IMG/VR virus record: IMGVR_UViG_3300045988_080954
Strand: one strand, 5' to 3'
From: a virus
Length of the DNA stretch: 64,000 nt
Shown here: one piece after another, positions 2,953-58,715 of the stretch
How positions within the stretch are numbered: position 1 is the first letter of the stretch
Layout: every line of letters begins with the position of its first letter
Made by a program: the position numbers and the translations under genes
Notes under the pieces: model-generated
The model's input: only the letters and a program-made list of their open reading frames with translations
Database searches by the model: none
Told to the model about the DNA's origin: nothing

Positions 2953-3351
2953 ATGAGAGGATTAAAACGCCAAAAACAGATAGTATATTGGTCAAGGGCA
3001 ACTGAAGACCTTGACGGGATAGACACAATCAAAACGTACCAAAAGCCAGAATTGCATCACCTCTCCGTGTCTGCGACCGCCGGAACGCCAGAGGAATTAT
3101 CCGCCGGTTATATCCCGGACTACGACAGATACATCACGAACTTTGACCGTGACTTCAAGCCGCAGACCGCCGATGTATTCTGGATAGACTGCAAGCCGGA
3201 ACTGAATGAAGCAGGCGAACTTATCTTAGGCGAAGATGGAGAGCCTACAGTCCCACCAGATTACCGTCTAAAAAAGATTCTTGATACCCAGAAAGGGAAT
3301 GTGGCACGATATGGTATCAAGTATATAGGAGATGGTTCAGATGGCGAATAA
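2953..3351 (+). CDS. head-tail connector-like protein (132 aa)
   Basis: ATG at 2953 follows GGGAGA. First of three small genes preceding the major tail gene. Call rests on position only. Confidence 0.45.
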   Translation: MRGLKRQKQIVYWSRATEDLDGIDTIKTYQKPELHHLSVSATAGTPEELSAGYIPDYDRYITNFDRDFKPQTADVFWIDCKPELNEAGELILGEDGEPTVPPDYRLKKILDTQKGNVARYGIKYIGDGSDGE

Positions 3352-24904: not shown

Positions 24905-25037
24905 AGAGTATGCAGAGCTGGTAGGCAGATTAAAGGCATTTGAAGCGTATCTGAACACAACCGAAGCAAATACGTATTTAAAGAAAGAAGTTTGTGCAGC
25001 TATGCTCGGACTGAATTTGGAGGACAAGGAAAAATGA
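24858..25037 (+). CDS. hypothetical protein (59 aa)
   Basis: ATG at 24858 follows GAGGAGGA. Helical Glu/Ala-rich product. Confidence 0.4.
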   Translation: MEKENKMDFRAETVAEEYAELVGRLKAFEAYLNTTEANTYLKKEVCAAMLGLNLEDKEK

Positions 25038-25765
25038 AATGCTATAAGGGATTTGACAAAGACTTAAAATGCTGTGATTTTCAGTATGAAATCGGTAAGG
25101 AGTATGAAGAAGAAAGAGCCGAGATTTGCGATACTGGATTTCATGCTTGTGAGAATCCGTTGGATGTATTTGGATATTATGCACCGGCTGATTCCAGATA
25201 TTGTGAAGTCGAGCTGGATGCAAACGATCAGAAATCTGACGACAGCAAGAGAGTAGGAAAGAAGATTTCTATTAAAGCAGAAATCGGAATTGCCGGAATT
25301 ATTAAAGCCGGTCTGGAGTACATCAAAGATCAGGTTAACTGGGACGATGATAAAAAGTCCAACACCGGATACCGCTCAGCGGCAACCAACACCGGAAACT
25401 GTTCAGCGGCAACCAACACCGGATACCGCTCAGCGGCAACCAACACCGGATACCGGTCAGCGGCAACCAACACCGGATACCGCTCAGCGGCAACCAACAC
25501 CGGATACCGGTCAGCGGCAACCAACACTGGAGATCAGTCAGCGGCAACAGTAGAAGGAAAAGAAAGCGTCGCAATGGCCATTGGATACAATTCTAAAGCT
25601 AAAGGTTCGCTTGGATGCTTTATTGTACTGGCAGAATACAAAAATCTGGGACGTGAATACCACATCGTAGATGTGAAAAGTGCAAAAGTTGACGGTAAAA
25701 AGATTAAGCCAGATACATTCTACAAACTCATTAACGGCGAATTTGTAGAAGCAGATAAAGAGTAA
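25034..25765 (+). CDS. repeat protein: Cys/His N-domain + seven NTGYRSAAT nonapeptide repeats (243 aa)
   Basis: ATG at 25034 follows AAGGAAAA. N-domain KGFDKDLKCCDFQYEIGKEYEE...GFHACENPLDVFGYY is a widespread phage domain recalled without a firm family name. The repeats are read directly. Confidence 0.7.
   Translation: MKCYKGFDKDLKCCDFQYEIGKEYEEERAEICDTGFHACENPLDVFGYYAPADSRYCEVELDANDQKSDDSKRVGKKISIKAEIGIAGIIKAGLEYIKDQVNWDDDKKSNTGYRSAATNTGNCSAATNTGYRSAATNTGYRSAATNTGYRSAATNTGYRSAATNTGDQSAATVEGKESVAMAIGYNSKAKGSLGCFIVLAEYKNLGREYHIVDVKSAKVDGKKIKPDTFYKLINGEFVEADKE
25361..25549 (+). repeat. 7 x 27-bp near-identical in-frame tandem repeat
   Basis: Unit AACACCGGATACCG(C/G)TCAGCGGCAACC. Copies 2 and 7 are diverged (NTGNCSAAT, NTGDQSAAT). 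Confidence 0.95.
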
Positions 25766-36323: not shown

Positions 36324-36902
36324 ATGAATATTGATAAAGCAAAATTGAAATTAGGAATTTGGTACGAAGATGAGAATGGAAATGTGATTAATCAAAAAGA
36401 AGATTTAATGTGGGAAGCACCGGAAAAGGCAAGAACGTATCATTCTTGTTTCCCACTGCAAATAACGGAAAGCATTTATGCGGTACATAGCAAATCTCAA
36501 AAGGAAACGTGCAAACACAAAAGAAAATATTGGAAAAAGGATACAGGTCTGATAAAGGGATTAAAAGGCCATATATGCACTAATTGTGGGTGTAGCCAAA
36601 CAAGAAAGTGGTGGCAACCATGGGGAAGAAAATGGGATTATGGAACGGGTACTACGCCACTTATTGACTTACATACAAGTATTGGAGGCGGGAATCAAGA
36701 TGTCATAATGGCAATGGTAAGCAGCGGAGATTATACACTACAGGAAGCACTCGTTGTTTTTTCTACGGCCTGTGAAAGATGTATGAATGTGCTTACATAC
36801 AAGTATTTGAATGGAGCGGATGGATATGAAGAATATTCAGACGAGTGGAAAAAATGCAATACTGAATGCGATTTTTGTAAGATTAAGGAGGACACAAAAT
36901 GA
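36324..36902 (+). CDS. Cys-rich hypothetical protein (192 aa)
   Basis: Co-oriented ORF; CTNCGC and CERC motifs. Confidence 0.5.
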   Translation: MNIDKAKLKLGIWYEDENGNVINQKEDLMWEAPEKARTYHSCFPLQITESIYAVHSKSQKETCKHKRKYWKKDTGLIKGLKGHICTNCGCSQTRKWWQPWGRKWDYGTGTTPLIDLHTSIGGGNQDVIMAMVSSGDYTLQEALVVFSTACERCMNVLTYKYLNGADGYEEYSDEWKKCNTECDFCKIKEDTK

Positions 36903-37186
36903 AATTCAAAAGTAATGCTAAGTATAACGAAGAACCAAAAACTGGAAGTATTTTCGCCTTGAAATACAATTCTTTAAAAATCGTTATTCACAAATACGTT
37001 GGCTATGGAGATACGCTGTTCCTTAACTGTAACACATTGGGTATTTACAACTACAATCTTGGAACAGAGGATTTTGAGGAAGCTGTCAGCAAAACGAAAG
37101 AAGTTGTCATGCGTGAAGTTAAGAAAATCAGAGAGGATTCATACAGATTCTGTTCAGACAACAATATTGAATTTGATAGATATTAG
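36899..37186 (+). CDS. hypothetical protein (95 aa)
   Basis: ATGA overlap with the upstream gene. Confidence 0.5.
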   Translation: MKFKSNAKYNEEPKTGSIFALKYNSLKIVIHKYVGYGDTLFLNCNTLGIYNYNLGTEDFEEAVSKTKEVVMREVKKIREDSYRFCSDNNIEFDRY

Positions 37187-37195
37187 GAGGACGTA

Positions 37196-37552
37196 ATGAC
37201 AGAGCAGGAAAAGAAAGAACTTCTGGACGAAATTGAAAAGCGCATGGACGAGAAATACAAAGGTTGCCTTACCAGAGAAGACGTCGCAACCACATTAAAG
37301 ACACCAAGAGAAAAGTGGTTCAAAGACGAGAACGGGAACGGAAGCCATTCTCTTATGACAGGAGCTTTCGATTCTTCTATTATCTCGTGGCAGGTCTGGG
37401 AAACAATCAGAAAGTTGACTTGTGTTATCTGCGGTAAGCAGTATGTTAGACAGCTTGCAAATGTAGAGAATGCAGATGAGGTTGCAGAGAAGCTTTGCCA
37501 GTTTGTCTATGATTTAAAGATGGGATTTAAAGAGCAGGAGGACGAAAAATGA
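37196..37552 (+). CDS. hypothetical protein (118 aa)
   Basis: RBS AGGAGGA. Confidence 0.5.
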   Translation: MTEQEKKELLDEIEKRMDEKYKGCLTREDVATTLKTPREKWFKDENGNGSHSLMTGAFDSSIISWQVWETIRKLTCVICGKQYVRQLANVENADEVAEKLCQFVYDLKMGFKEQEDEK

Positions 37553-37710
37553 GTTATTGTAACGGAACTTGTGAGTATCTAAATGTCAGAAAACACAAAT
37601 GCGAATTGACAGGAGAAAAACTCACATACATGAAACAGAGTTGTGGAATCGAATATTCAGTGCATGAACACAGAGGATTCTGTGAGAAAGATAAGGAGGA
37701 CGCAAAATGA
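37549..37710 (+). CDS. small Cys-rich protein (53 aa)
   Basis: Below the cutoff. ATGA overlaps at both ends. Product MSYCNGTCEYLNVRKHKCELTGEK... Confidence 0.35.
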   Translation: MSYCNGTCEYLNVRKHKCELTGEKLTYMKQSCGIEYSVHEHRGFCEKDKEDAK

Positions 37711-38072
37711 AATTATATTTCTACATTTTGGACAGGAATGAAAAATTTAATCCAGAAACCAGAACATTTGAGAAGCCTGTTTTCAAAATAAGAGCTGAAG
37801 AATGCGAGGTAATCGAGAAACCAAAAACTTACAGAGCATTAACCAAGTTCCCAGAAGGACTTTATATTGGATACGTGAGTAAGGATAATATTGGAAAAAT
37901 TCTTGATTCTTTAACAGAGTACATTGTGTTGAAAGAACCAAATTATCAGTTCGTAAAAGAAAAATTCTTAGAAAAATATAACATTGAAATCAGCAGACTC
38001 AAAAAAGCAATCGTTATGTACGAAAATAAGATAGCTGCGGTTGAGAATTACAAGGAGGACACAAAATGTTAA
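37707..38072 (+). CDS. hypothetical protein (121 aa)
   Basis: RBS AAGGAGGA. Confidence 0.5.
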   Translation: MKLYFYILDRNEKFNPETRTFEKPVFKIRAEECEVIEKPKTYRALTKFPEGLYIGYVSKDNIGKILDSLTEYIVLKEPNYQFVKEKFLEKYNIEISRLKKAIVMYENKIAAVENYKEDTKC

Positions 38073-38305
38073 TCAGAAGTCAGGATAAAAGAATGATTGT
38101 AAATTTCGACAATATTTGCACAGTATCAGCCTTTCCTGAAAAGGATAGTGAGGATATCTATGTCGAAGATGGCACAGGCTCACTCATAGTCGGAAGATAT
38201 TCCACCAAAGCAAAAGCCATGAAAGTACTGGATATGATTCAGGAAGCCTATGTAAACGGGCATATTGATTATCAGATGCCAGATGATAGTGAGGTGGTTG
38301 TATGA
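38066..38305 (+). CDS. hypothetical protein (79 aa)
   Basis: RBS AAGGAGGA. Confidence 0.5.
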   Translation: MLIRSQDKRMIVNFDNICTVSAFPEKDSEDIYVEDGTGSLIVGRYSTKAKAMKVLDMIQEAYVNGHIDYQMPDDSEVVV

Positions 38306-38606
38306 AGTACAGAAAGAAGCCAGTTGTAATTGATGCAGTACAGTGGACTGGTACAAATAAGCGAGAAATATTTGATTTTCTAACAAATGGCAATTGTCCG
38401 GTGAGTATACGACATCTGATTTTCCGATTGTATCTGACAACTTCTACATCGACAAATGGAAGGTTCCAGGCGGTCTGGTTATTAAGACACTCGAGAGCGA
38501 ACATCTGTCGAATATTGGTGATTATATCATCCGCGATGTTCACTGTGAATTTTATCCGTGCAAGCCAGATATATTCAGAGAAACTTATGAGGAGGTGGAA
38601 GCATGA
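38302..38606 (+). pseudogene. small phage protein split over two frames (frameshift near 38385-38400)
   Basis: The N-part [27 protein letters not shown] (frame of 38302) and the C-part ...[30 protein letters not shown] (frame of 38394, -1) together resemble one common phage protein of about 100 aa. After the junction the first frame reads like noise. Confidence 0.45.
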
Positions 38607-39109
38607 ATAAGCTTGTATTGGACGCTACGTGCGGTTCAAGAATGATCTGGTTCAACAAAAATAATGAGTTAGCTGTTTTTGTGGATAAGCGTGAATTGGA
38701 TTGCGAGGCAATATGGACGAGTGGAAGCGGGCAAGCTACAAGGTACTGCAACATTCACCCTGACGTTATGGCAGATTTTACGGATCTTCCGTTTGAGGAC
38801 AACACTTTCTATCATGTTGTGTTTGACCCACCACATCTTATTCAGGGCGGAGATAATTCATGGATGGTAAAAAAATACGGGAAACTTAATAAGAATACAT
38901 GGAAGCAGGTATTGCATGATGGCTTTTTTGAGTGTATGCGTGTATTAAAGCCCTATGGCACATTGATTTTTAAATGGAACGAAGTGCAAATTCCTGTAAA
39001 AGATGTAATTGCAGCTATCGGAGTAGAGCCGCTGTATGGTAATAGATCTGGCAAACAGGGAAAAACACACTGGATGGCATTCATAAAGACTGAGGAGATG
39101 GAAGTATGA
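38603..39109 (+). CDS. SAM-dependent (probably DNA) methyltransferase (168 aa)
   Basis: Motif I-like [13 protein letters not shown] and motif IV-like VVFDPPHL. Confidence 0.6.
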
Positions 39110-39220
39110 TTACATTCTTATTAGGACTTACACTTGGAATCATAGTCGGAGTGGTCGGTCTTGCATGCGTAGCGATCATGTACGACAAGCACCACTCAGA
39201 CAAATAGAAAGGAGAACGGT

Positions 39221-39535
39221 ATGCTGACAAGGAATAAGAAGCTGAAAGATTACGGTATTCTGGCTGAAGACATTGAAAAACTGAATACGATGCTGAAAGA
39301 CTTCCCGGCAGAGTACGGATACCTGCTTTCCAGTGCCGCCTTGTCAGCCTGCCCGAAAAACACGGTGATAGCGGATATGGTTATTGATAATATCCTACAC
39401 CGGAAAAGTTACAGAAAAATCAGCAGAGAAAGATATATCCCGATGAACCCGAAAGACTTCTACGGATACAGGCGCAAGACCGTCGCTGTACTGTATGAGA
39501 GAATGCGGTTGTTGGGAGTGTGGGAGGATGAATAA
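39221..39535 (+). CDS. hypothetical protein (104 aa)
   Basis: RBS AAAGGAGAA. Confidence 0.45.
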   Translation: MLTRNKKLKDYGILAEDIEKLNTMLKDFPAEYGYLLSSAALSACPKNTVIADMVIDNILHRKSYRKISRERYIPMNPKDFYGYRRKTVAVLYERMRLLGVWEDE

Positions 39536-39781
39536 ATGCGTTTAATTGATGCAGACAAAATAATTGACTCTCTTGGAATTTCGGATATGGATTTTGCAAT
39601 AGGTGCAGTTATTGACGAACAACCGACAGTTTTTGATGTAGATAAGGTTGTGGAGCAGTTGGAAACAAGAAAGACAAGAGCTGCTGCATTACAGAAGGAA
39701 AATATATCAGAGTATTTCGAGGGTGAAACTGATGCGTTTGAATTTGCAATCAAAATCGTGAAAGGTGGCGGAGTTGAATGA
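39536..39781 (+). CDS. hypothetical protein (81 aa)
   Basis: Starts directly after the upstream stop. Confidence 0.45.
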   Translation: MRLIDADKIIDSLGISDMDFAIGAVIDEQPTVFDVDKVVEQLETRKTRAAALQKENISEYFEGETDAFEFAIKIVKGGGVE

Positions 39782-40200
39782 GAGAGATTCTTTTTAAGGC
39801 AAAGAGGATTGATAACGGCGAATGGGTTGAGGGATATTACTTAAGAGATCAATATCACATAGGGGGAAAGGACATTATTTTTTATCGAAAGGATTCAGAT
39901 CGGTTTACAGTATATACCAATATAATTGATATAGAAACCATCTGCCAGTTCACGGGACTGACCGACAAGAACGGGAATAAAATTTGGGAAAATGATATAT
40001 TTCAATACACAGATGAAACAATGGTAACTCAAAAAGATTTAATCGAATATAACGAAACCCATGCGTCATTTGTACGACTTCGCAATACAGAGAAGTTAGG
40101 TTTGCAATACTTATGGATTGATGAAGCTACTTGTAATCATGGAGAGGTTATTGGAAATATCTTCGATAATCCAGAATTGTTACAGGAGGAACACAAATGA
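39778..40200 (+). CDS. YopX-family protein (140 aa)
   Basis: ILFKAKRIDNGEWVEGYY...CQFTGLTDKNGNKIWENDI...GNIFDNPELL matches the recalled YopX pattern. Confidence 0.65.
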   Translation: MREILFKAKRIDNGEWVEGYYLRDQYHIGGKDIIFYRKDSDRFTVYTNIIDIETICQFTGLTDKNGNKIWENDIFQYTDETMVTQKDLIEYNETHASFVRLRNTEKLGLQYLWIDEATCNHGEVIGNIFDNPELLQEEHK

Positions 40201-40439
40201 GTAGCGCAAGCGTAAGATTCGGAACAAAAGCGTATGTATGTGCAAGGTACTTCCTTAGACCGGGAAAGTGCTTCAAATACATCGACCAGCGTGCCGAAGA
40301 TACCACAGAACACGTCTATGAGGTCATAGCATTATATCCTTATTGTGTATTGTTAAGAGATACAAGAAACGGAGTCAGAATTTGCCCGGGATATAACGTT
40401 TTGAGCCTGATGCTGAGAGGAAGTGAAGCGAGTGAGTAA
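40197..40439 (+). CDS. hypothetical protein (80 aa)
   Basis: ATGA overlap. Confidence 0.45.
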   Translation: MSSASVRFGTKAYVCARYFLRPGKCFKYIDQRAEDTTEHVYEVIALYPYCVLLRDTRNGVRICPGYNVLSLMLRGSEASE

Positions 40440-40587
40440 AGGCAAAGATATTTCTACTATGTTTACAAGAGAAGAAAACAAAAAGAACGGAAGACTTGGA
40501 TATTGTCAGGCTACAAGAGAAAAAGACACTATCATTAGCCCTTCGCAATATGGAGCATTCTTGCAGAAAAGAGGTAAGAGAAGATGA
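40432..40587 (+). CDS. small basic protein (51 aa)
   Basis: Below the cutoff. GTG start overlaps the upstream stop; its stop overlaps the next ATG. Confidence 0.3.
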   Translation: MSKGKDISTMFTREENKKNGRLGYCQATREKDTIISPSQYGAFLQKRGKRR

Positions 40588-40859
40588 GCAAGTCAGTATT
40601 AGTGATTGATACACCAGAGGACTGCGGAAAATGTAAATTTATAAGCGGATTTTGGTGCAGAGCAATGGATGATAGGAGAGTTTCAAACAATGATGTAATC
40701 CCTGGCTGGTGTCCATTGAAGCCATTGCCGGAGGAGAAAGAAGAGGAATATTGGAGAAGTAAACTTAGTCTTGCATGGATTCGAGGTTGGAACACTTGTA
40801 TTAGCAAAATTACAGGAGGCGAAGCAGATGGAGAGATTAACAGATTATTCAGACGATGA
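40584..40859 (+). CDS. Cys-containing hypothetical protein (91 aa)
   Basis: DCGKCKF...WCPLKPLP. Confidence 0.45.
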   Translation: MSKSVLVIDTPEDCGKCKFISGFWCRAMDDRRVSNNDVIPGWCPLKPLPEEKEEEYWRSKLSLAWIRGWNTCISKITGGEADGEINRLFRR

Positions 40860-41259
40860 ATGCACATATATCATTGGCGTTGGGAATAAAACTTGCGAAG
40901 AATTTTGTAAATACGTAGTAGATGGATGCAGGAATTGCTATATCCAACAAGCGTTTAAAAAACTTGCTGACTATGAAGACTTGGAAGACCAGGGCTTGCT
41001 TGTGAGATTGCCAGTTAATAAGAATAATGAAATATATATCATATCTTCCAGATGGACAGTCTGCTCAGAATGCGGTTCAAGATTTGATGAATACAGTTGT
41101 AGTGGCTGCGAATACGAATGCGATAGTAAAAAAGAATATTATGTGTATCCAACTTATCTTTCGCTTATAGATGTAACCACTTATGCTAACCAATTTGGGA
41201 AAACAATATTTCTTACGTACGAAGAAGCTAAGAAGAAGCTGGAGGAGATGAAAAAATGA
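40828..41259 (+). CDS. Cys-rich hypothetical protein (143 aa)
   Basis: ATG at 40828 follows AGGAGG. Multiple CxxC motifs (CSECGS, CSGCEYEC). Confidence 0.45.
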   Translation: MERLTDYSDDECTYIIGVGNKTCEEFCKYVVDGCRNCYIQQAFKKLADYEDLEDQGLLVRLPVNKNNEIYIISSRWTVCSECGSRFDEYSCSGCEYECDSKKEYYVYPTYLSLIDVTTYANQFGKTIFLTYEEAKKKLEEMKK

Positions 41260-41456
41260 CAATCGGAAAAAGAATTAGAGAGGTGCGTTTGCAAAATGAT
41301 ATGTCTCTCAGAGATTTTGCAGAACTTATCGAAGTTACTGATACCGCAGTCATGGAATGGGAGAAAGGAATCAGCAATATTCCGTTTGTGTGTGCGATAG
41401 AGATTGCTGACCGATTCGATGTGAAATTAAATTGGTTAGCCGGATTGGAGGATTAA
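41256..41456 (+). CDS. XRE-family HTH protein (66 aa)
   Basis: IREVRLQNDMSLRDFAELIEVTDTAVMEWEKG. Confidence 0.65.
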   Translation: MTIGKRIREVRLQNDMSLRDFAELIEVTDTAVMEWEKGISNIPFVCAIEIADRFDVKLNWLAGLED

Positions 41457-41457
41457 C

Positions 41458-41826
41458 ATGAAACCAGAAGAAGCATTAAAAGAATTAAGCTATGATGGCA
41501 CAGCCTATGGTGGTAACTGTACTTACGAAGTTAGAATGGTTGCAGTTAAGGCATTAAAAAAGCAGATTCCAATGAAAGTTTTGTACGAAGATGTAGGATA
41601 CGACCAATATCACGATGTTAATTTATATGCTTGCATCTGTCCGTCATGTGGACTGCATATTATTGGTTTTTCGGATGACGATGTAGATTCTAAATGCAAC
41701 AGCGATAACCCAGAAGATATGTTTCATTCCAGTATGGTACATCATGCATATATTGGCATGAATAATTATTGTAACAGATGCGGGCAGAAATTAGATTGGA
41801 GTGGAAAAGATGGCGTACAGCATTGA
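41458..41826 (+). CDS. zinc-finger hypothetical protein (122 aa)
   Basis: CPSCG...CNRCGQ. Confidence 0.45.
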   Translation: MKPEEALKELSYDGTAYGGNCTYEVRMVAVKALKKQIPMKVLYEDVGYDQYHDVNLYACICPSCGLHIIGFSDDDVDSKCNSDNPEDMFHSSMVHHAYIGMNNYCNRCGQKLDWSGKDGVQH

Positions 41827-42109
41827 TGAAAGTATTATTGCCAAAAGCATCAAGCATTACGGAGCAGAAATTCAGTCGACCGTCTGTATGGAGGAATGCG
41901 CAGAACTGATACAGGCGATCAGCAAAGCGAAGAGAGGAAAGTTTGATGAAAACAATATGACAGAAGAAATCGCAGATGTACTGATATGTGTTGAAACACT
42001 CAAGCAATTGTACAATATCTCAGATGAATATATCAGCAAATTGATATCATACAAGCAGAAAAGAGTAAAATGTGGATTGGAGAAATTCATTCGAAAATCA
42101 ATGCGGTAA
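41810..42109 (+). CDS. MazG-like nucleotide pyrophosphohydrolase (99 aa)
   Basis: CMEECAELIQAISKAKRG...MTEEIADVLICVE shows the E-x-x-E ... E-x-x-D helix pair. Confidence 0.55.
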   Translation: MAYSIDESIIAKSIKHYGAEIQSTVCMEECAELIQAISKAKRGKFDENNMTEEIADVLICVETLKQLYNISDEYISKLISYKQKRVKCGLEKFIRKSMR

Positions 42110-51490: not shown

Positions 51491-51566
51491 TTCGTTTCCT
51501 TTCTGCCCTGCCATCATCAGCACCGGGAGGGCGGTCCCGGTGGACGGTCATTTCTGACCGTTTCGG

Positions 51567-51770
51567 CTATCCGTTTATTACTGCATTCACGGTATCCCAT
51601 GCCTGTTGATAGCTTCTTAATACTTCTCCCTTGTGTGGACCTGTGGAAATAATGGTTCCCCACTTCGGAGTGCCGATTCTATCAGTTATCATTTTTTTAT
51701 CAGGCACATATTTCACTTTAAATATCCTGAGTGATTCCATTACGCATCGTTTATACTGTTTCTTTGTCAT
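51567..51770 (-). CDS. hypothetical protein (67 aa)
   Basis: ATG ORF, leftward operon. Confidence 0.5.
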   Translation of the reverse strand: MTKKQYKRCVMESLRIFKVKYVPDKKMITDRIGTPKWGTIISTGPHKGEVLRSYQQAWDTVNAVING

Positions 51771-52195: not shown

Positions 52196-52450
52196 ATGTT
52201 AGAGTATAAAATTGACGTAATAAAAGAGCTTTCAAATATTGGCATAAACACCACAGTAGCAAAGAATACAGGGATTTTCGGACAGGCTACAATGAAAAAA
52301 TTTAGAGACCGAGACACTAATATATCTCTCGACAACCTCAACCGACTTTGTGCAGTTCTGGAGATGCAGCCAAGAGATATTTTAAAATATGTAGAAACGG
52401 AAAAAGACAGAGCGGATTATATAGAAATAATTCACAAAAAAGAGAGATAA
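52196..52450 (+). CDS. XRE/Cro-type HTH regulator (84 aa)
   Basis: RBS AGGAGGAAAG. NISLDNLNRLCAVLEMQPRDILKY is the typical HTH C-terminal pattern. Confidence 0.6.
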   Translation: MLEYKIDVIKELSNIGINTTVAKNTGIFGQATMKKFRDRDTNISLDNLNRLCAVLEMQPRDILKYVETEKDRADYIEIIHKKER

Positions 52451-52455
52451 CTCTA

Positions 52456-52485
52456 TTGACAAATCACAAATTATAGTGATATAAT
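52456..52485 (+). promoter_or_regulatory. near-consensus promoter TTGACA-N18-TATAAT (TGa extended -10) with internal palindrome ATCAC-N8-GTGAT
   Basis: TTGACA at 52456-52461 and TATAAT at 52480-52485. The inverted repeat lies inside the spacer. Confidence 0.6.
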
Positions 52486-52543: not shown

Positions 52544-52774
52544 ATGAAATTAAACACATTGTCATACGTCCTCGGAGCAGAGAACACAATTGAAGCTGGC
52601 AGAGAATATTATTTCGGTCAGCTCTGGGACGGAAACGGGGACGGCGAAGAACTGTTGGAGTCTGGAGCGATCGCCGTATATCAGGATGGCGAGGAATATA
52701 TTGTTGACTTCGAAATCCTGGAACCTGCGGATGATATTTTACAGACCCGGGTCAAAGTTATCGGGATTAACTAG
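52544..52774 (+). CDS. small acidic protein (76 aa)
   Basis: RBS AGGAGGAAG. Asp/Glu-rich. Confidence 0.5.
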   Translation: MKLNTLSYVLGAENTIEAGREYYFGQLWDGNGDGEELLESGAIAVYQDGEEYIVDFEILEPADDILQTRVKVIGIN

Positions 52775-52785
52775 GAGGCAGGAAA

Positions 52786-53001
52786 ATGAAGTATATAATT
52801 ATGGATTATACGGACGGTGATTGTTTCACCGATGAATTTGACAACAAGGAAGAAGCCATTCTGGAAGCAGAGGGAAAATGGTCAAATCTGACAAGGTTTG
52901 AAAAGAAACACAGATCGGAGTTTTACGTGCTGGAAAGCATCAATCCGGACGAGGACGCGCCCGATCATTACGACGGCAATGACGTAAAACGTTGGAAATA
53001 A
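52786..53001 (+). CDS. small acidic protein (71 aa)
   Basis: RBS GGAGGCAGG. Asp/Glu-rich. Confidence 0.5.
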   Translation: MKYIIMDYTDGDCFTDEFDNKEEAILEAEGKWSNLTRFEKKHRSEFYVLESINPDEDAPDHYDGNDVKRWK

Positions 53002-53016: not shown

Positions 53017-53478
53017 ATGATTAAGAGAGTAAAACTTGAAACCATTTACAAAATGGCTAAAGAAGATAACGAGAAAATAAAAGCTCGTAAACTTTTCCCG
53101 GACGGATGGGATGAAAAAGTCTACGATTATTACAACAAACTGTCAAAAGATTCGTACGACGTTGAAATGTTTATGGATTTTTTGAGCGGTGAAGATTCGC
53201 CGCTAGAAATGGCGTACGCATACAGAAGAAATATGTATATTATGTTGTATACAATGAATGCAACAGATACAATGGCATTTGTAGACGGCGAATATGATAT
53301 ATTTTACATCGTATCAAAAGACGGTGATGATTATAACAGCTGGGAGTGGTGTTTCACAAACAATATTGACCCGATCAAATACAGGGGTGACGACGGAGAC
53401 GAACCGGTCCCGGAATGGCTCATAAAAAAATACAAAGAACAGATAAGAGAGGAAAAGAGAAATGAAGAAAACAATTAA
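53017..53478 (+). CDS. hypothetical acidic protein (153 aa)
   Basis: RBS GGAGGTAAG. Confidence 0.5.
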   Translation: MIKRVKLETIYKMAKEDNEKIKARKLFPDGWDEKVYDYYNKLSKDSYDVEMFMDFLSGEDSPLEMAYAYRRNMYIMLYTMNATDTMAFVDGEYDIFYIVSKDGDDYNSWEWCFTNNIDPIKYRGDDGDEPVPEWLIKKYKEQIREEKRNEENN

Positions 53479-53656
53479 TTTATTAAATGAAGTTGTAGCA
53501 ATGGGATTCGGCAGAGAGCAGGCGCTTGCAGACATCGATGCAAGCCTCGACTCAGAACTTGAAGAAAGAAAGCCATTGATGGAGGAAGAAATACCCGAAA
53601 GTCTGTATGACGATATCCTTGAAGGTTTTCGAGCAGACAAGGAAATGAACGCATGA
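53462..53656 (+). CDS. small acidic protein (64 aa)
   Basis: Overlaps both neighbours. Glu/Asp-rich. Confidence 0.45.
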   Translation: MKKTINLLNEVVAMGFGREQALADIDASLDSELEERKPLMEEEIPESLYDDILEGFRADKEMNA

Positions 53657-54342
53657 AAGCGGTAATGATACAAGGACATATGGACACCGCCCGGTTTTCA
53701 ATTCCGGGATGGAATGGCAAGCGGGGCGAAACATACCCACTTCCGCCTTTTTCTACAATTGCCGGGATGGTCCATTTTCTTTGCAGGTGGGACAGTTGGC
53801 ATGATATGAAGATATCCGTATCCGGCAATGGAGTCATGAACAAGGCGGAGATTTGCGCGAGGTGGCGCGGCGGTGCTGTTGCAGGGTCAGAAACAGAAGA
53901 ATTTAAGCAGCGGTTCCCAGTCCGGGTGAAATCTGGGGATTCGTATGTAGGATGGGTTAATACACCAATTTATGAAGCGTTTGCCTCTGATCTGGATCTG
54001 CGGCTGCATATTATGCCGGATAGCCAAGAAGAAGTTGACGTAATTTACAGGAAAATCTTAAATCCCCGGACATTCCCAAGTCTGGGACGGCATGAAGACT
54101 TGATAAGAATTGACGACGTGCAGGTTGTCGATATTCTGCCGGCACAGGAAATGGCGCTTGATATGTGCGCGTATGCACCGTCTACAATTAAGGTACCCGG
54201 AACTGTTTACACAATTCACAAGGACTACGTGATCAAAAATGGAAAACGAAGATTTAATGACATTCCGGTGAAATATTTAGACCGAGGAATGAAAGTAATT
54301 ACAGATTGTGATAATTTAAACAATCCTTGCTTTTTCCTTTGA
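53653..54342 (+). CDS. cas5: Cas5-like RAMP protein (type I-B/Tneap style), orphan (229 aa)
   Basis: VMIQGHMDTARFSIPGWNGKRGETYPLPPFSTIAGMVHFL matches the Cas5 N-terminal signature. FPSLGRHEDLIRIDDVQVVDI matches the recalled Cas5t SLGR-x-ED-x-x-RID motif. ATGA overlap with the upstream gene. Confidence 0.7.
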   Translation: MKAVMIQGHMDTARFSIPGWNGKRGETYPLPPFSTIAGMVHFLCRWDSWHDMKISVSGNGVMNKAEICARWRGGAVAGSETEEFKQRFPVRVKSGDSYVGWVNTPIYEAFASDLDLRLHIMPDSQEEVDVIYRKILNPRTFPSLGRHEDLIRIDDVQVVDILPAQEMALDMCAYAPSTIKVPGTVYTIHKDYVIKNGKRRFNDIPVKYLDRGMKVITDCDNLNNPCFFL

Positions 54343-54361
54343 TTTGTGTTATTATTCAGAT

Positions 54362-54443
54362 AACAGTTACGAATGTAACTGAATGTAAAATCAAATTGGT
54401 AATGAATTATTTTTAATAGTTCCATAGTGGAAAGGCACAAAAT
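54362..54443 (+). ncRNA. two CRISPR-repeat-like hairpin units (solitary-repeat / mini-array candidate)
   Basis: Unit 1, 54362-54391: AACAGTTACGAATGTAACTGAATGTAAAAT, with stem CAGTTAC/GTAACTG and tail AATGTAAAAT. Unit 2, 54415-54443: AATAGTTCCATAGTGGAAAGGCACAAAAT, with stem TTCCA/TGGAA. They share AA-AGTT 5' ends and AAAAT 3' ends and are 23 nt apart. Confidence 0.4.
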
Positions 54444-54474
54444 AAGCCCCTGAGAGATAATCCCGGGGGCTTTT
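54444..54474 (+). terminator. intrinsic terminator ending the cas5 operon
   Basis: GCCCC (54446-54450) pairs with GGGGC (54466-54470), followed by TTTT. Confidence 0.65.
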
Positions 54475-54593
54475 GCTGTCTTATTCTGGCGGCGTAACGA
54501 GTGAGGGGGAACAACCCCGCCGCCGAAGCTGTTAAAATACATATAGCACAAAACTGCCGAAGTTGTCAAGCAAAAATTTTTTTATTTTGGGTC

Positions 54594-54737
54594 TTGATTT
54601 TTAAAACTGATGCGGATAAAATAAAAATAACGACAGGCGACGGAACTCAGGACGGGAGCTGCAAGTCAGAGCGTGAAAAGAATAAGATTTTAACAGCCAG
54701 ATCAAGCCGGACAAGGTGCCGGAAGGTCTGGCTTTTT
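54594..54737 (+). ncRNA. candidate small RNA of about 110 nt (promoter to terminator, no ORF)
   Basis: TTGATT (54594)-N17-TAAAAT (54617). Terminator AGCCAGA (54695-54701) / TCTGGCT (54727-54733) with inner CCGG/CCGG stem and T5. No ATG-initiated ORF between them. Confidence 0.35.
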
Positions 54738-54937
54738 GTGTTTAATAGCCAGAAAATGACCGTATTACATAACGTATAAGTATATAATAACTGTTTTTAT
54801 AATCCCGTCCAAGATTCCAGAGACCTAGAGTTTATTAATATACATACTATACAGTACTGTATAGATATATATAGTTATACTAATATACCTAGATAAATGA
54901 TACGCATATTAAAAATCTATAAAAATAAAATAGGGGA

Positions 54938-55100
54938 TTGACAGATAGACAATACCTGTGATAAAACAGATTTAACAACTGAATAAGCCAGAGGGCGAAC
55001 GAAAACATTTTTATTTTTGTAACATTTTTGAAAGTATACCGAGTTAATCACGGCGCATTGTTTACAATGCAAATTATTTTGTGATGACTCGGTTTTTTTT
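54938..55100 (+). promoter_or_regulatory. promoter plus structured leader ending in a strong terminator just upstream of terS
   Basis: TTGACA (54938-54943)-N15-TGa-TAAAAC. Stem ACCGAGTTAATCAC (55038-55051) / GTGATGACTCGGT (55081-55093) enclosing GCATTG-ttta-CAATGC, then T8. The terS GTG is 34 nt downstream. Confidence 0.45.
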
Positions 55101-55133
55101 ATTTTATTAGCACGATGAAGTGGAGGTGATACA

Positions 55134-55715
55134 GTGAAAAGGAACAATACAGTAGTTACAGATCAGGGAATAGAAGTATATGCCAGTACGATTAATTATT
55201 ATGCTGATGAATATGTTGATTCACTGTATGACCAAGAGGAGATACATAAGTCAAACAGTAATCAATTCACTGGTATGATTAAGTATATCAATAAGCATAT
55301 TGGCTTTGATAGAAGAATACTGGAAGATATAGACATTTTAAATGAAATATGGGACGCATATACAGAATTGGTCTATAAATACAACCAGAAACCGACGATA
55401 GAAGAATATGCTTTACTGATTGGTATTCATAGGGATACTATTTATTCGTGGGCAAAAGGAGAGTGCAGAGCTGATGACTATTGTGAAAAGCTAAGCCTCT
55501 CGCGCTCCGACACGATTAAAAAATGGCAAGATGAATGCGCACTTGGACGATATAAAAGCGCAGCTTCCGGGAACGTTGGTGGCATATTCCTTTGCAAGGC
55601 CGTTGACGGCATGGCAGAGACGGCACCAGTCCAGATAGATCAGCGACAGGACAAGCCACGTGAGAGCCTGGAGCAGATCAAAGAAGAGTTTGGCGGGTTG
55701 CTGACAGGAGAGTGA
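55134..55715 (+). CDS. terS: terminase small subunit-like protein (193 aa)
   Basis: GTG after GGAGGTGA. PTIEEYALLIGIHRDTIYSWAKG HTH and SGNVGGIFLCKAVDG resemble the recalled TerS pattern (...GAIFLLK...). No large subunit follows within the window. Confidence 0.6.
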   Translation: MKRNNTVVTDQGIEVYASTINYYADEYVDSLYDQEEIHKSNSNQFTGMIKYINKHIGFDRRILEDIDILNEIWDAYTELVYKYNQKPTIEEYALLIGIHRDTIYSWAKGECRADDYCEKLSLSRSDTIKKWQDECALGRYKSAASGNVGGIFLCKAVDGMAETAPVQIDQRQDKPRESLEQIKEEFGGLLTGE

Positions 55716-57534: not shown

Positions 57535-57606
57535 TGGGCTATCGCCAAGTGGTAAGGCACAGCACTTTGACTGCTGTATTCGCGGGTTCGAATCCCGCTA
57601 GCCCAG
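57535..57606 (+). tRNA. tRNA-Gln (anticodon TTG)
   Basis: Hand-folded cloverleaf: TGGGCTA/TAGCCCA acceptor, CAGCA-CTTTGAC-TGCTG anticodon arm, GCGGG-TTCGAAT-CCCGC T-arm. Close by eye to E. coli tRNA-Gln. No encoded CCA. Confidence 0.85.
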
Positions 57607-57650
57607 TCGGACTATATTGTTTAGCCATGATATAGTTCCCCTCCAAAGGT

Positions 57651-57702
57651 TTCATCTATCCCAACGGGGATGACTAAAGGGGCTTCAAATGCCCCGGATG
57701 GA
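57651..57702 (+). ncRNA. tRNA-like element lacking one arm (52 nt)
   Basis: TTCATCT / GGATGGA acceptor-like stem (2 G-U pairs), ATCCC-AACG-GGGAT hairpin, GGGGC-TTCAAAT-GCCCC T-arm. Confidence 0.3.
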
Positions 57703-57824
57703 CTCTGCGAATATTGCAGAACAACGGTTTCATTTCAGATCAGACCCTTTGTTGCGACTGAGAGGGCATGAATCGCAACAGTAGAGGATGTTTACTCTTG
57801 AACTACAATGAGCACCTCTACTTA

Positions 57825-57898
57825 GGACATTTAGTTCAGTTGGTCAGAACGCCCGGCTCATAACCGGGTAGTCCGGGGTTCGAGTCCCTGAATGTCCA
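57825..57898 (+). tRNA. tRNA with CAT anticodon (elongator Met or Ile2)
   Basis: GGACATT/AATGTCC acceptor, GTTC/GAAC D-stem, CCCGG-CTCATAA-CCGGG, CGGGG-TTCGAGT-CCCTG. G1-C72 pair argues against an initiator. Confidence 0.85.
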
Positions 57899-58294
57899 TT
57901 TCTCCTGTACAATGCCACCCAAGCCGTTATCCGGGTGGAGAAACTTTTCAGAAGAACGATGTTGGAAATCATGATGACCACGATACGGCGTGTAGATCAC
58001 ATATTTCCATTTCCGTTTTCTGAAAGCATTTCAGAGTTTACGGGGTTGACGAACCCGGGAGTTTCAAGGAATGCAGGAATCCGATAACAATGGTTGTTAT
58101 ATTTCAAATCGACATGAATATCTCCGTGGAGCATACCACGGTTATCAAAAAGCCGTACAGTTATCAAGCCAGACGTTATCTACAAAAGGTTGGCGGCGCG
58201 CTCCTGTAAGCGTCGTGAGAAAAACAGGATAGTGGAAAGCATAAGCTAAGGCATAACACGATAAACATATTGCTAACCCGGGAATCCGGGTTCT

Positions 58295-58377
58295 GGGAGA
58301 ATATTCTGTAGAGGTAGCAGGGCTGACTGTAAATCAGTTGTTTAACGGCTCGGGTGGTTCGACTCCATCTTCTCCCA
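58295..58377 (+). tRNA. tRNA-Tyr (anticodon GTA), long variable arm
   Basis: GGGAGAA/TTCTCCC acceptor, GCTGA-CTGTAAA-TCAGT, GGTGG-TTCGACT-CCATC. D-stem is weak (G-U pairs). Confidence 0.7.
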
Positions 58378-58491
58378 TTCGCAGGGTAGAGAAGCGGCAT
58401 CTCGCAAGGCTCAGACTTATCGTCACAGTGGCTGAATATGGTTGCAAGTATGATGGATAAGGGGAAACCCTAATCATGTTTGAATAGTTGA

Positions 58492-58576
58492 GCTGACGTA
58501 CCGAAATGGTTATAACGGCGTAGTCTTGAAAACTAATGTGGTGAAAGCCCTGTAGGTTCGAATCCTACCGTCAGCG
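58492..58576 (+). tRNA. tRNA-Ser (anticodon TGA), long variable arm
   Basis: GCTGACG/CGTCAGC acceptor, CCG/CGG D-stem, TAGT-CTTGAAA-ACTA (27-43 mismatch), GTAGG-TTCGAAT-CCTAC. Confidence 0.7.
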
Positions 58577-58580
58577 TTAT

Positions 58581-58663
58581 GGTGCATTGCTGTAATGGTA
58601 TCAGAGTAGGTTGCTAACCTATCCAACAGAAATGTTGTACACGTTCGAATCGTGTATGCACCG
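58581..58663 (+). tRNA. tRNA-Ser (anticodon GCT), long variable arm
   Basis: GGTGCAT/ATGCACC acceptor, CTG/CAG D-stem, GTAGG-TTGCTAA-CCTAT, variable hairpin AACA-GAAA-TGTT, ACACG-TTCGAAT-CGTGT. Confidence 0.8.
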
Positions 58664-58715
58664 TTCCAATGAATTGCCATCATTGGAAACAGGTAATATC
58701 TGTACCGTTCCGACT

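Follow-up and report, generated by a model that had tools for sequence, protein, structure and literature searches.

The anti-CRISPR (Acr) protein AcrIB3, encoded by a Listeria prophage, is 38% identical to Cas5. It is recovered together with Cascade on purification and stops type I-B immunity at a step that precedes DNA binding (Katz et al., bioRxiv 10.1101/2023.06.24.545427). It displaces native Cas5, lacks an 18-residue hook required for Cas8b binding and has a loop that is six residues longer; giving the hook back or removing the loop makes it inactive (review PMC13131331). Here we describe vCas5, a Cas5 homologue encoded by a phage on a 64,000-nt stretch of DNA (IMG/VR record IMGVR_UViG_3300045988_080954, hereafter the window), together with a CRISPR RNA (crRNA)-like unit that follows its gene. 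The 5′ handle of a type I-B crRNA, to which Cas5 binds, derives from the final 8 nt of the repeat. We consider it on balance likely that vCas5 and the RNA unit form a two-part module, protein and RNA, directed against type I-B immunity.

Inhibitory and regulatory RNAs of viral origin have been described as well. Racrs are solitary repeat units that serve as RNA anti-CRISPRs, one of which, RacrIC1, is bicistronic with AcrIC5, and RacrIF1 works through a Cas6-bound stem-loop, with a dispensable 5′ handle, and excludes Cas5 and Cas8 (PMC10651486). Cracrs are viral crRNA-like regulatory RNAs, often found in arrays with short spacers, which cooperate with the linked AcrIF24 and are defined by at least nine bases proximal to the protospacer adjacent motif (PAM) that match host CreR/CreA (bioRxiv 10.1101/2024.10.29.618823). 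Viral mini-CRISPR arrays used in inter-virus competition carry spacers that mostly match related viruses (PMC11656645). No RNA linked to a viral Cas5 homologue appears in the main texts of the Racr (PMC10651486) and Cracr (bioRxiv 10.1101/2024.10.29.618823) papers, the latter of which makes no mention of Cas5, and the accessible part of the text of Katz et al. does not mention a crRNA-like unit next to a viral cas5 gene. The strict coupling of a viral Cas5 mimic to a short-spacer crRNA-like unit is new in that we found no such pairing in the literature searched.

An earlier note on this DNA, made from its letters alone, had singled out the 229-aa product of a lone Cas5-like gene, citing a Cas5 N-terminal signature and an SLGR-x-ED motif. 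Both held up, the gene in the profile searches and the structure prediction and comparison that the note had proposed, and the motifs in an alignment with genuine Cas5b. The reading frame is a real gene encoding a diverged homologue of the type I-B Cas5 (Cas5b). It is matched by PADLOC Cas5b models (E 6.7e-23 and 1.1e-20) and by the NCBIfam profile TIGR01895 for Cas5t/Cas5b (E 4.3e-20; 72.2 bits, under the curated cutoff of 96.7), while Pfam PF09704 gives only a marginal N-terminal match (E 0.069; 13.5 bits against a cutoff of 23). Judged by these scores, vCas5 is a significant Cas5b homologue and an outlier to the family. Searches with vCas5 of PHROGs and of PDB sequences returned no match, and IMG/VR scans with queries P0037, P0030 and P0033 returned nothing. 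In the alignment, the columns of YPLPPxST..GM.H and SLGRxED are constant or almost so, in genuine Cas5b as well as in vCas5. An AlphaFold2 model built from 45 homologues has a mean predicted local distance difference test score of 90.9 and adopts the Cas5 fold of the repeat-associated mysterious protein (RAMP) type; its best Foldseek matches in the PDB are all Cas5 subunits of type I-B, I-E, I-A and I-C Cascades (E about 4e-7, TM-scores 0.54-0.6). The median ratio of nonsynonymous to synonymous divergence (dN/dS) over 90 pairs of vCas5 genes is 0.12, and the gene is therefore kept by selection.

The earlier note was mistaken in holding that this was not a described kind of system: a Cas5-derived anti-CRISPR has been published as AcrIB3, and the gene family of vCas5 is itself listed in Table S3 of Katz et al., a prediction list of 358 orphan viral cas genes from which matches near predicted arrays were removed (bioRxiv 10.1101/2023.06.24.545427). 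Five loci related to the one in the window appear in that table as cas5 of CAS-I-B with matching coordinates (IMGVR_UViG_3300045988_035813, _065832, _101626, _103204 and _117306), and all five carry members of the same family, 84-88% identical. The host given for these contigs, Blautia_A, is the IMG/VR prediction as printed in the table.

Like AcrIB3, vCas5 is a full-length Cas5b homologue carried by a mobile element, outside any cas operon and in an acr-type locus, and the likeness extends to three features of the protein. The hook segment is absent from all nine aligned vCas5 sequences, as it is from AcrIB3; the window protein reads YAPSTIKVPGT where Listeria Cas5b has a longer segment, and Lachnospiraceae Cas5b proteins are 7-10 residues longer here. 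The thumb-tip loop is about six residues longer than that of Listeria Cas5b and 2-4 longer than that of Lachnospiraceae Cas5b, and both vCas5 and AcrIB3 have R-x-F where genuine Cas5b has R-x-W. In contrast to these shared features, the two proteins are only 33% identical, belong to separate clades and have different hosts, Listeria for AcrIB3 and Lachnospiraceae for vCas5. In a neighbour-joining tree of 42 sequences, the vCas5 clade is monophyletic with 100% bootstrap support, while AcrIB3, which is nearer to genuine Cas5b (38-45% identity) than to the vCas5 clade (31-36%), nests among Bacilli-type Cas5b; neighbour joining is a simple method, and the deep branching of the tree is tentative. 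Cas5b thus appears to have been turned into a defective subunit a second time, in vCas5, by a convergent loss of the hook that was independent of AcrIB3. A further difference is that the vCas5 clade is followed by the crRNA-like unit, with AcrIB3 having been compared by its protein only. Among the roles that the earlier note had suggested, a poison or decoy subunit is the best supported, since the hook loss is the same as that which makes AcrIB3 an inhibitor and vCas5 may by analogy act in the same way.

Tblastn matches labelled as Listeria phage were considered as possible AcrIB3 relatives and rejected, as they lie in a seemingly genuine type I-B cas8b-cas7-cas5-cas3 operon in UNVERIFIED_ORG records. 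The records are ‘Listeria phage LM 4-11-1’ and ‘LM 4-14-1’ of INPHARED (OR846720.1, positions 36555-42100, and OR848150.1), and the operon could be either bacterial DNA within the record or a sign of a phage with a cas operon.

The RNA unit has a common layout among the relatives of the window locus, which are numbered with the prefix L below: the handle motif GAATGTAAA, then a short spacer, about 19-34 nt long, then roughly 22 nt from the 5′ end of a type I-B repeat, and a terminator. It lies 24-55 nt after the vCas5 stop codon in 75 of the 76 loci that have readable DNA downstream of the gene, across six lineages and several phage backbones. The handle motif is invariant in all eight close and distant loci that were aligned, about 40 nt past the stop, in flanks that cannot be aligned in the distant loci. 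Pairing in the short hairpin before the handle is retained with a different sequence in loci of the L013 type (ATTAC/GTAAT) and in both copies found in L069, which has two stacked units; L072 also appears to bear a second unit. The only exception to the linkage, L068 (positions 2272-2400), has lost the second repeat part (psiR2) through a deletion and keeps the hairpin, the handle and the spacer next to a vCas5 gene that is 86% identical at the nucleotide level. L068 could serve as a natural test of the importance of the 3′ handle.

Gene and unit are retained together down to 46-50% protein identity. In three distant homologues (L193, L195 and L197; 48-51% identical), which lie in different prophages after the lysis cassette (L193 and L197) or by an integrase, vCas5 is followed by a mini-array of complete repeats with 19-21-nt spacers that ends in a truncated repeat and a terminator. 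The array of L193, for example, consists of repeat ATATAATAGTACCATACTGGAATGTAAAG, spacer TTAACTATTGTGTATTTCCC, repeat TTTAATAGTCCCATATTGGAATGTAAAA, spacer TTAACTATTATTTATCTCACC and the truncated repeat TTAATAGTTCCATACTGGAAATAGAAAG; its period is 48 nt, compared with about 65 nt in genuine arrays, where spacers are about 35-36 nt long. All other neighbours of vCas5 change between lineages and only the RNA unit stays adjacent. Since the upstream neighbours differ and the unit is constant, the constant module is vCas5 together with the RNA unit. The earlier note had offered a partnership with repeat-like RNA hairpins directly after the gene as one possible role. The partnership receives strong comparative support, from the 75 linked loci and from the full mini-arrays of the distant relatives, but the repeats are probably not where the note saw them: the evident hairpins are terminators, and the crRNA-like unit occupies 54380-54432.

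The handle motif matches the 3′ end of clostridial type I-B repeats, such as the Clostridioides difficile repeat GTTTTAGATTAACTATATGGAATGTAAAT, and of Lachnospiraceae repeats as well. A scan of species-representative genomes found many arrays of such repeats with a period of about 65 nt, including ATTTAAATAGAAACATAGTGGAATGTAAAG and GTTTTAATAGGTACATTGTGGAATGTAAAT in Lachnospiraceae, and several arrays of the TGGAATGTAAA(T/G) type adjoin genuine Cas5b genes in Lachnospiraceae genomes. No other stretch of the window matches the 5′ parts of genuine repeats and of the relatives' repeats as well as psiR2 does (19/23 for L081 and 19/21 for L193 and L197; next best 15). A comparison with the full 30-nt repeat gave 21/30 against a background best of 20, which is weak taken alone, and the composite pattern of the unit, defined after seeing the data, occurs once in the window and in none of 100 shuffles. 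The unit went undetected by Tandem Repeats Finder and by a repeat search and surfaced only when distant loci were aligned; no Rfam family was found in 54300-55200. It is the comparative evidence, then, and not the window sequence by itself, that carries the case for this putative RNA. A long-range helix around the unit in the minimum free energy fold was dropped because, by our reading of the alignment, it is not conserved in the L013-type loci.

Two further observations concern the surroundings of such units. On the 3′ side of the unit in the window, a non-coding block (54480-54900) is 73-96% identical (mostly 79-93%) in relatives with synonymous divergence (dS) of 0.4-0.7. The block has no Rfam match. 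Its elements are a GC-rich hairpin at 54489-54526 (GGCGGCG..CGCCGCC), a site resembling a promoter at 54594-54622 and a terminator at 54718-54740; it could encode a small RNA or, ahead of the terS-like open reading frame (ORF) at 55134, act as a packaging site. In Fusobacterium phage FNU4 (OQ808964.1), a separate 355-aa Cas5-like ORF with a long Lys/Glu-rich insertion (1831-2898) has, about 170-250 nt downstream and on the opposite strand, two copies of TAATGTAT(C/T)ACTAGATTAGAATTTAAA placed 55 nt apart (about 3069-3143). The 3′ 19 nt of these copies match a type I-B repeat class at 16 of 19 positions by our reading, and the pair may be a second pairing of a Cas5 mimic with a mini-array.

The unit shares with Cracrs an architecture of two degenerate, host-type repeat parts around a short spacer, a position on a phage and outside any CRISPR-Cas locus, occasional stacking and linkage to a protein anti-CRISPR. 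It differs in that the linked candidate anti-CRISPR is a Cas-derived subunit, and no match to host CreR/CreA was found for the vCas5 units in 0.84 Mb of type I-B loci that are probably not those of the true hosts. With Racrs it has in common that a repeat mimic on a phage adjoins acr genes; in contrast to RacrIF1, it is conserved most strongly in the 5′ handle, after which come a spacer and a second part of a repeat. Viral mini-arrays likewise have one or two spacers between host-type repeats on a virus (PMC11656645), but the full arrays linked to vCas5 have spacers of 19-21 nt, and the two spacers tested had no convincing viral target.

vCas5 is the last cistron of an operon of small acidic proteins, just as the earlier note had described it: four ORFs with isoelectric points (pI) between 4.05 and 4.58 precede it behind a consensus promoter (Table 1). 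The protein at the head of the locus, which has a Cro/C1-type helix-turn-helix (HTH) domain, may be a regulator similar to anti-CRISPR-associated (Aca) proteins. A set of 62 relatives from IMG/VR, which blastn places at 83-98% nucleotide identity, retains vCas5 and the DNA on its 3′ side, and its small ORFs are gained and lost, as happens in acr clusters. Of the distant loci examined, most (L069/L070, L072, L193/L194, L195 and L197/L198) have an HTH or ribbon-helix-helix (RHH) gene 5′ of vCas5, with none called in L071. Upstream neighbours vary by lineage, being an HTH_26 protein, a 57-aa ribbon-helix-helix-like protein, a 137-aa HTH protein or, in L072, an ORF of the AcrIC5 family. We regard the context as acr-type because of the acidic upstream ORFs, the HTH/RHH genes, the variable small genes, the place of the L193 and L197 loci behind the lysis cassette and this AcrIC5-family ORF. 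The last of these (L072, 1488-1952) overlaps the vCas5 start and scores 29.3 bits with Pfam AcrIC5 against a cutoff of 27, and a Tad8-like ORF is found about 8 kb downstream in a different relative (L069, 13905-14004); phages with vCas5 seem to stack several anti-defence genes.

Table 1. Features of the vCas5 locus, with positions in the window
Feature	Position	Strand	Basis
Cro/C1-type HTH protein, 84 aa, candidate Aca-like regulator, head of locus	52196-52450	+	Pfam HTH_26, E 3.4e-8, above cutoff
Sigma-70 consensus promoter, TTGACA-18-TATAAT with TG	52456-52485	+	12/12 hexamer positions match
Inverted repeat ATCAC..GTGAT inside the promoter, candidate operator	52463-52480	+	Sequence read
Acidic ORF, 76 aa, pI 4.05, Acr candidate	52544-52774	+	No family match; present or absent among relatives
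Acidic ORF, 71 aa, pI 4.49, Acr candidate	52786-53001	+	
Acidic ORF, 153 aa, pI 4.58, Acr candidate	53017-53478	+	
Acidic ORF, 64 aa, pI 4.17, stop overlaps vCas5 start	53462-53656	+	Blastn match in nearly all close relatives
vCas5, hook-less type I-B Cas5 homologue, 229 aa	53653-54342	+	ATG-to-stop ORF; profiles, fold, alignment, clade, dN/dS
Hairpin GTTAC-GAAT-GTAAC, 5-6 bp, directly 5′ of the handle motif	54366-54379	+	Pairing kept with changed sequence elsewhere
psiR1, TGAATGTAAAA, corresponding to the 3′ end (crRNA 5′ handle) of type I-B repeats	54380-54390	+	Comparative alignment
psi-spacer, 19 nt	54391-54409	+	
psiR2, TTTTTAATAGTTCCATAGTGGAA, corresponding to the 5′ ~23 nt of a type I-B repeat, last 7-8 nt missing	54410-54432	+	
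Rho-independent terminator ending the operon	54445-54475	+	GC stem and T run, folded, conserved across loci

The window belongs to a phage of the temperate tailed type that encodes an integrase, RecT, a replisome organiser, a single-stranded DNA-binding protein, a 1658-aa ORF and a CHAP-domain protein. Contigs of 76.1 and 76.5 kb bear an identical vCas5 protein, which puts the phage at about 76 kb. As the earlier note had stated, no other cas gene is seen in the window. Scans of the 91 window ORFs of at least 100 aa with PADLOC, NCBIfam and Pfam profiles gave no cas family other than Cas5 among the families listed, and when all ORFs of at least 80 aa from eight genuine type I-B loci were compared with the window by tblastn, the only matches came from Cas5b ORFs, all within 53653-54285. 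We also looked for a complete cas operon immediately outside the window, which the note had named as evidence against its claim. In the portion read past the window end there are genes for RtcB, a 580-aa protein, a portal protein, a Mu-F protein and a capsid protein and no cas genes, and the remaining 3.3 kb or so is too short for a cas operon. vCas5 is thus a mobile-element Cas5b homologue outside any cas locus, without the cas8b/cas7/cas3 operon in which Cas5b is encoded.

Other parts of the phage have features of their own. Rfam identifies a type II hammerhead ribozyme at 51502-51568 on the minus strand (RF02276; 45 bits, gathering score 37). It lies in a 76-nt gap between two minus-strand ORFs and could cleave a polycistronic transcript. 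Five tRNA genes (Gln, Met, Tyr, Ser and Ser) are clustered at 57535-58664, and the gene for the RNA ligase RtcB is close by, just beyond the end of the window (L067, 10778-11980); the tRNA cluster and RtcB may counter tRNA-cleaving defences. A 27-nt tandem repeat in seven copies (92% matches) at 25359-25548 lies inside the ORF at 24992-25765 and gives a nine-residue repeat in the predicted protein.

The best explanation of these observations, to which we give slightly better than an even chance, is that the element is a temperate gut phage of Lachnospiraceae whose DNA at 52.2-54.5 kb forms an anti-CRISPR operon acting against type I-B systems. If AcrIB3 is a guide, vCas5 would enter Cascade instead of the host Cas5b and leave a complex unable to engage DNA. 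The crRNA-like RNA, once expressed and processed, would draw Cas6, Cas7 and Cas5 away from host crRNAs and present a handle for vCas5 to cap, yielding short, non-immune complexes that may be sinks only, as with Racrs, or may also guide repression of a host promoter, as with Cracrs. A direct interaction between vCas5 and the handle is plausible. AcrIC5 with RacrIC1 and AcrIF24 with its short-spacer Cracrs are precedents for loci that join protein and RNA anti-CRISPRs.

Several points weigh against this two-part anti-CRISPR proposal. The unit in the window is degenerate, with its first repeat reduced to about 10 nt and without an evident route to the 5′ end. At 33% identity and in a different clade, vCas5 cannot be assigned the function of AcrIB3 by orthology. 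Co-transcription of the gene and the unit is proposed solely from the absence of a terminator-like site between them, none having been found from the promoter to the terminator that ends the operon. A type I-B system could not be confirmed in the predicted host genus Blautia_A. Searches for targets of the psi-spacers in the window, in related phage loci and in 0.84 Mb of type I-B loci gave chance-level matches only, and 1017 spacers from arrays of this repeat class compared with the phage gave no convincing match, the best being a 24-nt partial one. Finally, a hook-less Cas5 would seem to defeat RNA-guided DNA binding, so that cooperation between the two parts is not self-evident.

If protein and RNA do act together, they may constitute a dedicated phage ribonucleoprotein, in which vCas5 caps the handle and seeds the assembly of host Cas7 and Cas6 into a shortened Cascade that lacks the hook, either draining these subunits or acting as a Cas3-proof repressor; we put this forward tentatively and lean somewhat against it. 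Rather unlikely, in our view, is that the operon contains two independent inhibitors, with vCas5 acting alone in the manner of AcrIB3 and the mini-array being a separate Racr or Cracr that has only the transcription unit in common with it and makes no specific contact with it. Bicistronic acr-racr loci such as AcrIC5 and RacrIC1 are known (PMC10651486), AcrIB3 is active without added RNA (bioRxiv 10.1101/2023.06.24.545427), and L068 has lost psiR2 with its gene intact, all of which would fit independent action. What argues against it is the adjacency of gene and RNA, kept within 24-55 nt in six lineages and several backbones as other neighbours change, and the fact that the best conserved part of the unit is the 5′ handle, the part that Cas5 binds in Cascade and that RacrIF1 does not need.

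A guide system run by the phage, in which the short RNAs direct a Cascade of host subunits and vCas5 to a promoter and bind there without triggering Cas3, is improbable. Its targets could be host cas genes, a CreT-type toxin, as for Cracrs, or a gene of this phage or of a rival. The spacers are as short as those of viral Cracrs (bioRxiv 10.1101/2024.10.29.618823) and begin alike within and between arrays (TTAACTATT, TTAGTTATT and TTAATTGTT), as in Cracr arrays directed against variants of one locus, but this similarity may merely reflect tandem duplication in AT-rich DNA. The failure to find targets in the searches described above also speaks against guidance, as does an exact scan of IMG/VR, in which the first psi-spacer gave one self match and six matches in unrelated contigs (about the chance level, by our estimate) and the second gave none. 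A search for CreR/CreA spacers or cas/creT promoters with at least nine PAM-proximal bases of the psi-spacers gave nothing beyond chance in the 0.84 Mb of type I-B loci, which are probably not from the true hosts, and no host-encoded short-period mini-arrays were seen in them. Moreover, the loss of the hook is expected to impair Cas8b binding, and with it PAM reading and DNA binding; since a hook-less Cas5 should prevent DNA binding, a guide role would need complexes that avoid or tolerate vCas5. We find it very improbable that the locus is merely what is left, without activity, of a CRISPR-cas locus once captured, or that it aids the lysogen by strengthening the immunity of the host, even though the array in the window is degenerate and Katz et al. 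raise a protective role for newly captured viral cas genes (bioRxiv 10.1101/2023.06.24.545427), because the gene is under strong purifying selection, the module is kept at great protein divergence, cas5 is not adjacent to the array in genuine loci, so that the adjacency is no simple relic, and the lost hook speaks against a working subunit.

Cas-derived and RNA anti-CRISPRs have hitherto been reported as unrelated inventions. In the vCas5 loci, mimics of Cas5 and of crRNA are inherited jointly, which suggests joint co-option of the protein and the RNA component of Cascade. If the vCas5 hook was lost independently of AcrIB3, this would be a repeatable path from Cas subunit to inhibitor, and if vCas5 and its RNA do form a ribonucleoprotein, vCas5 would be the first anti-CRISPR derived from a Cas protein to have a cognate guide-like RNA, and the pair would parallel, for type I-B, AcrIF24 and its Cracrs. 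Surveys that drop cas matches near arrays, or that detect arrays solely at normal spacer length, could overlook such pairings. The module is also a compact candidate off-switch for type I-B tools. It occurs in dozens of IMG/VR contigs, from phages abundant in human gut metagenomes, and may shape escape from CRISPR immunity in Lachnospiraceae.

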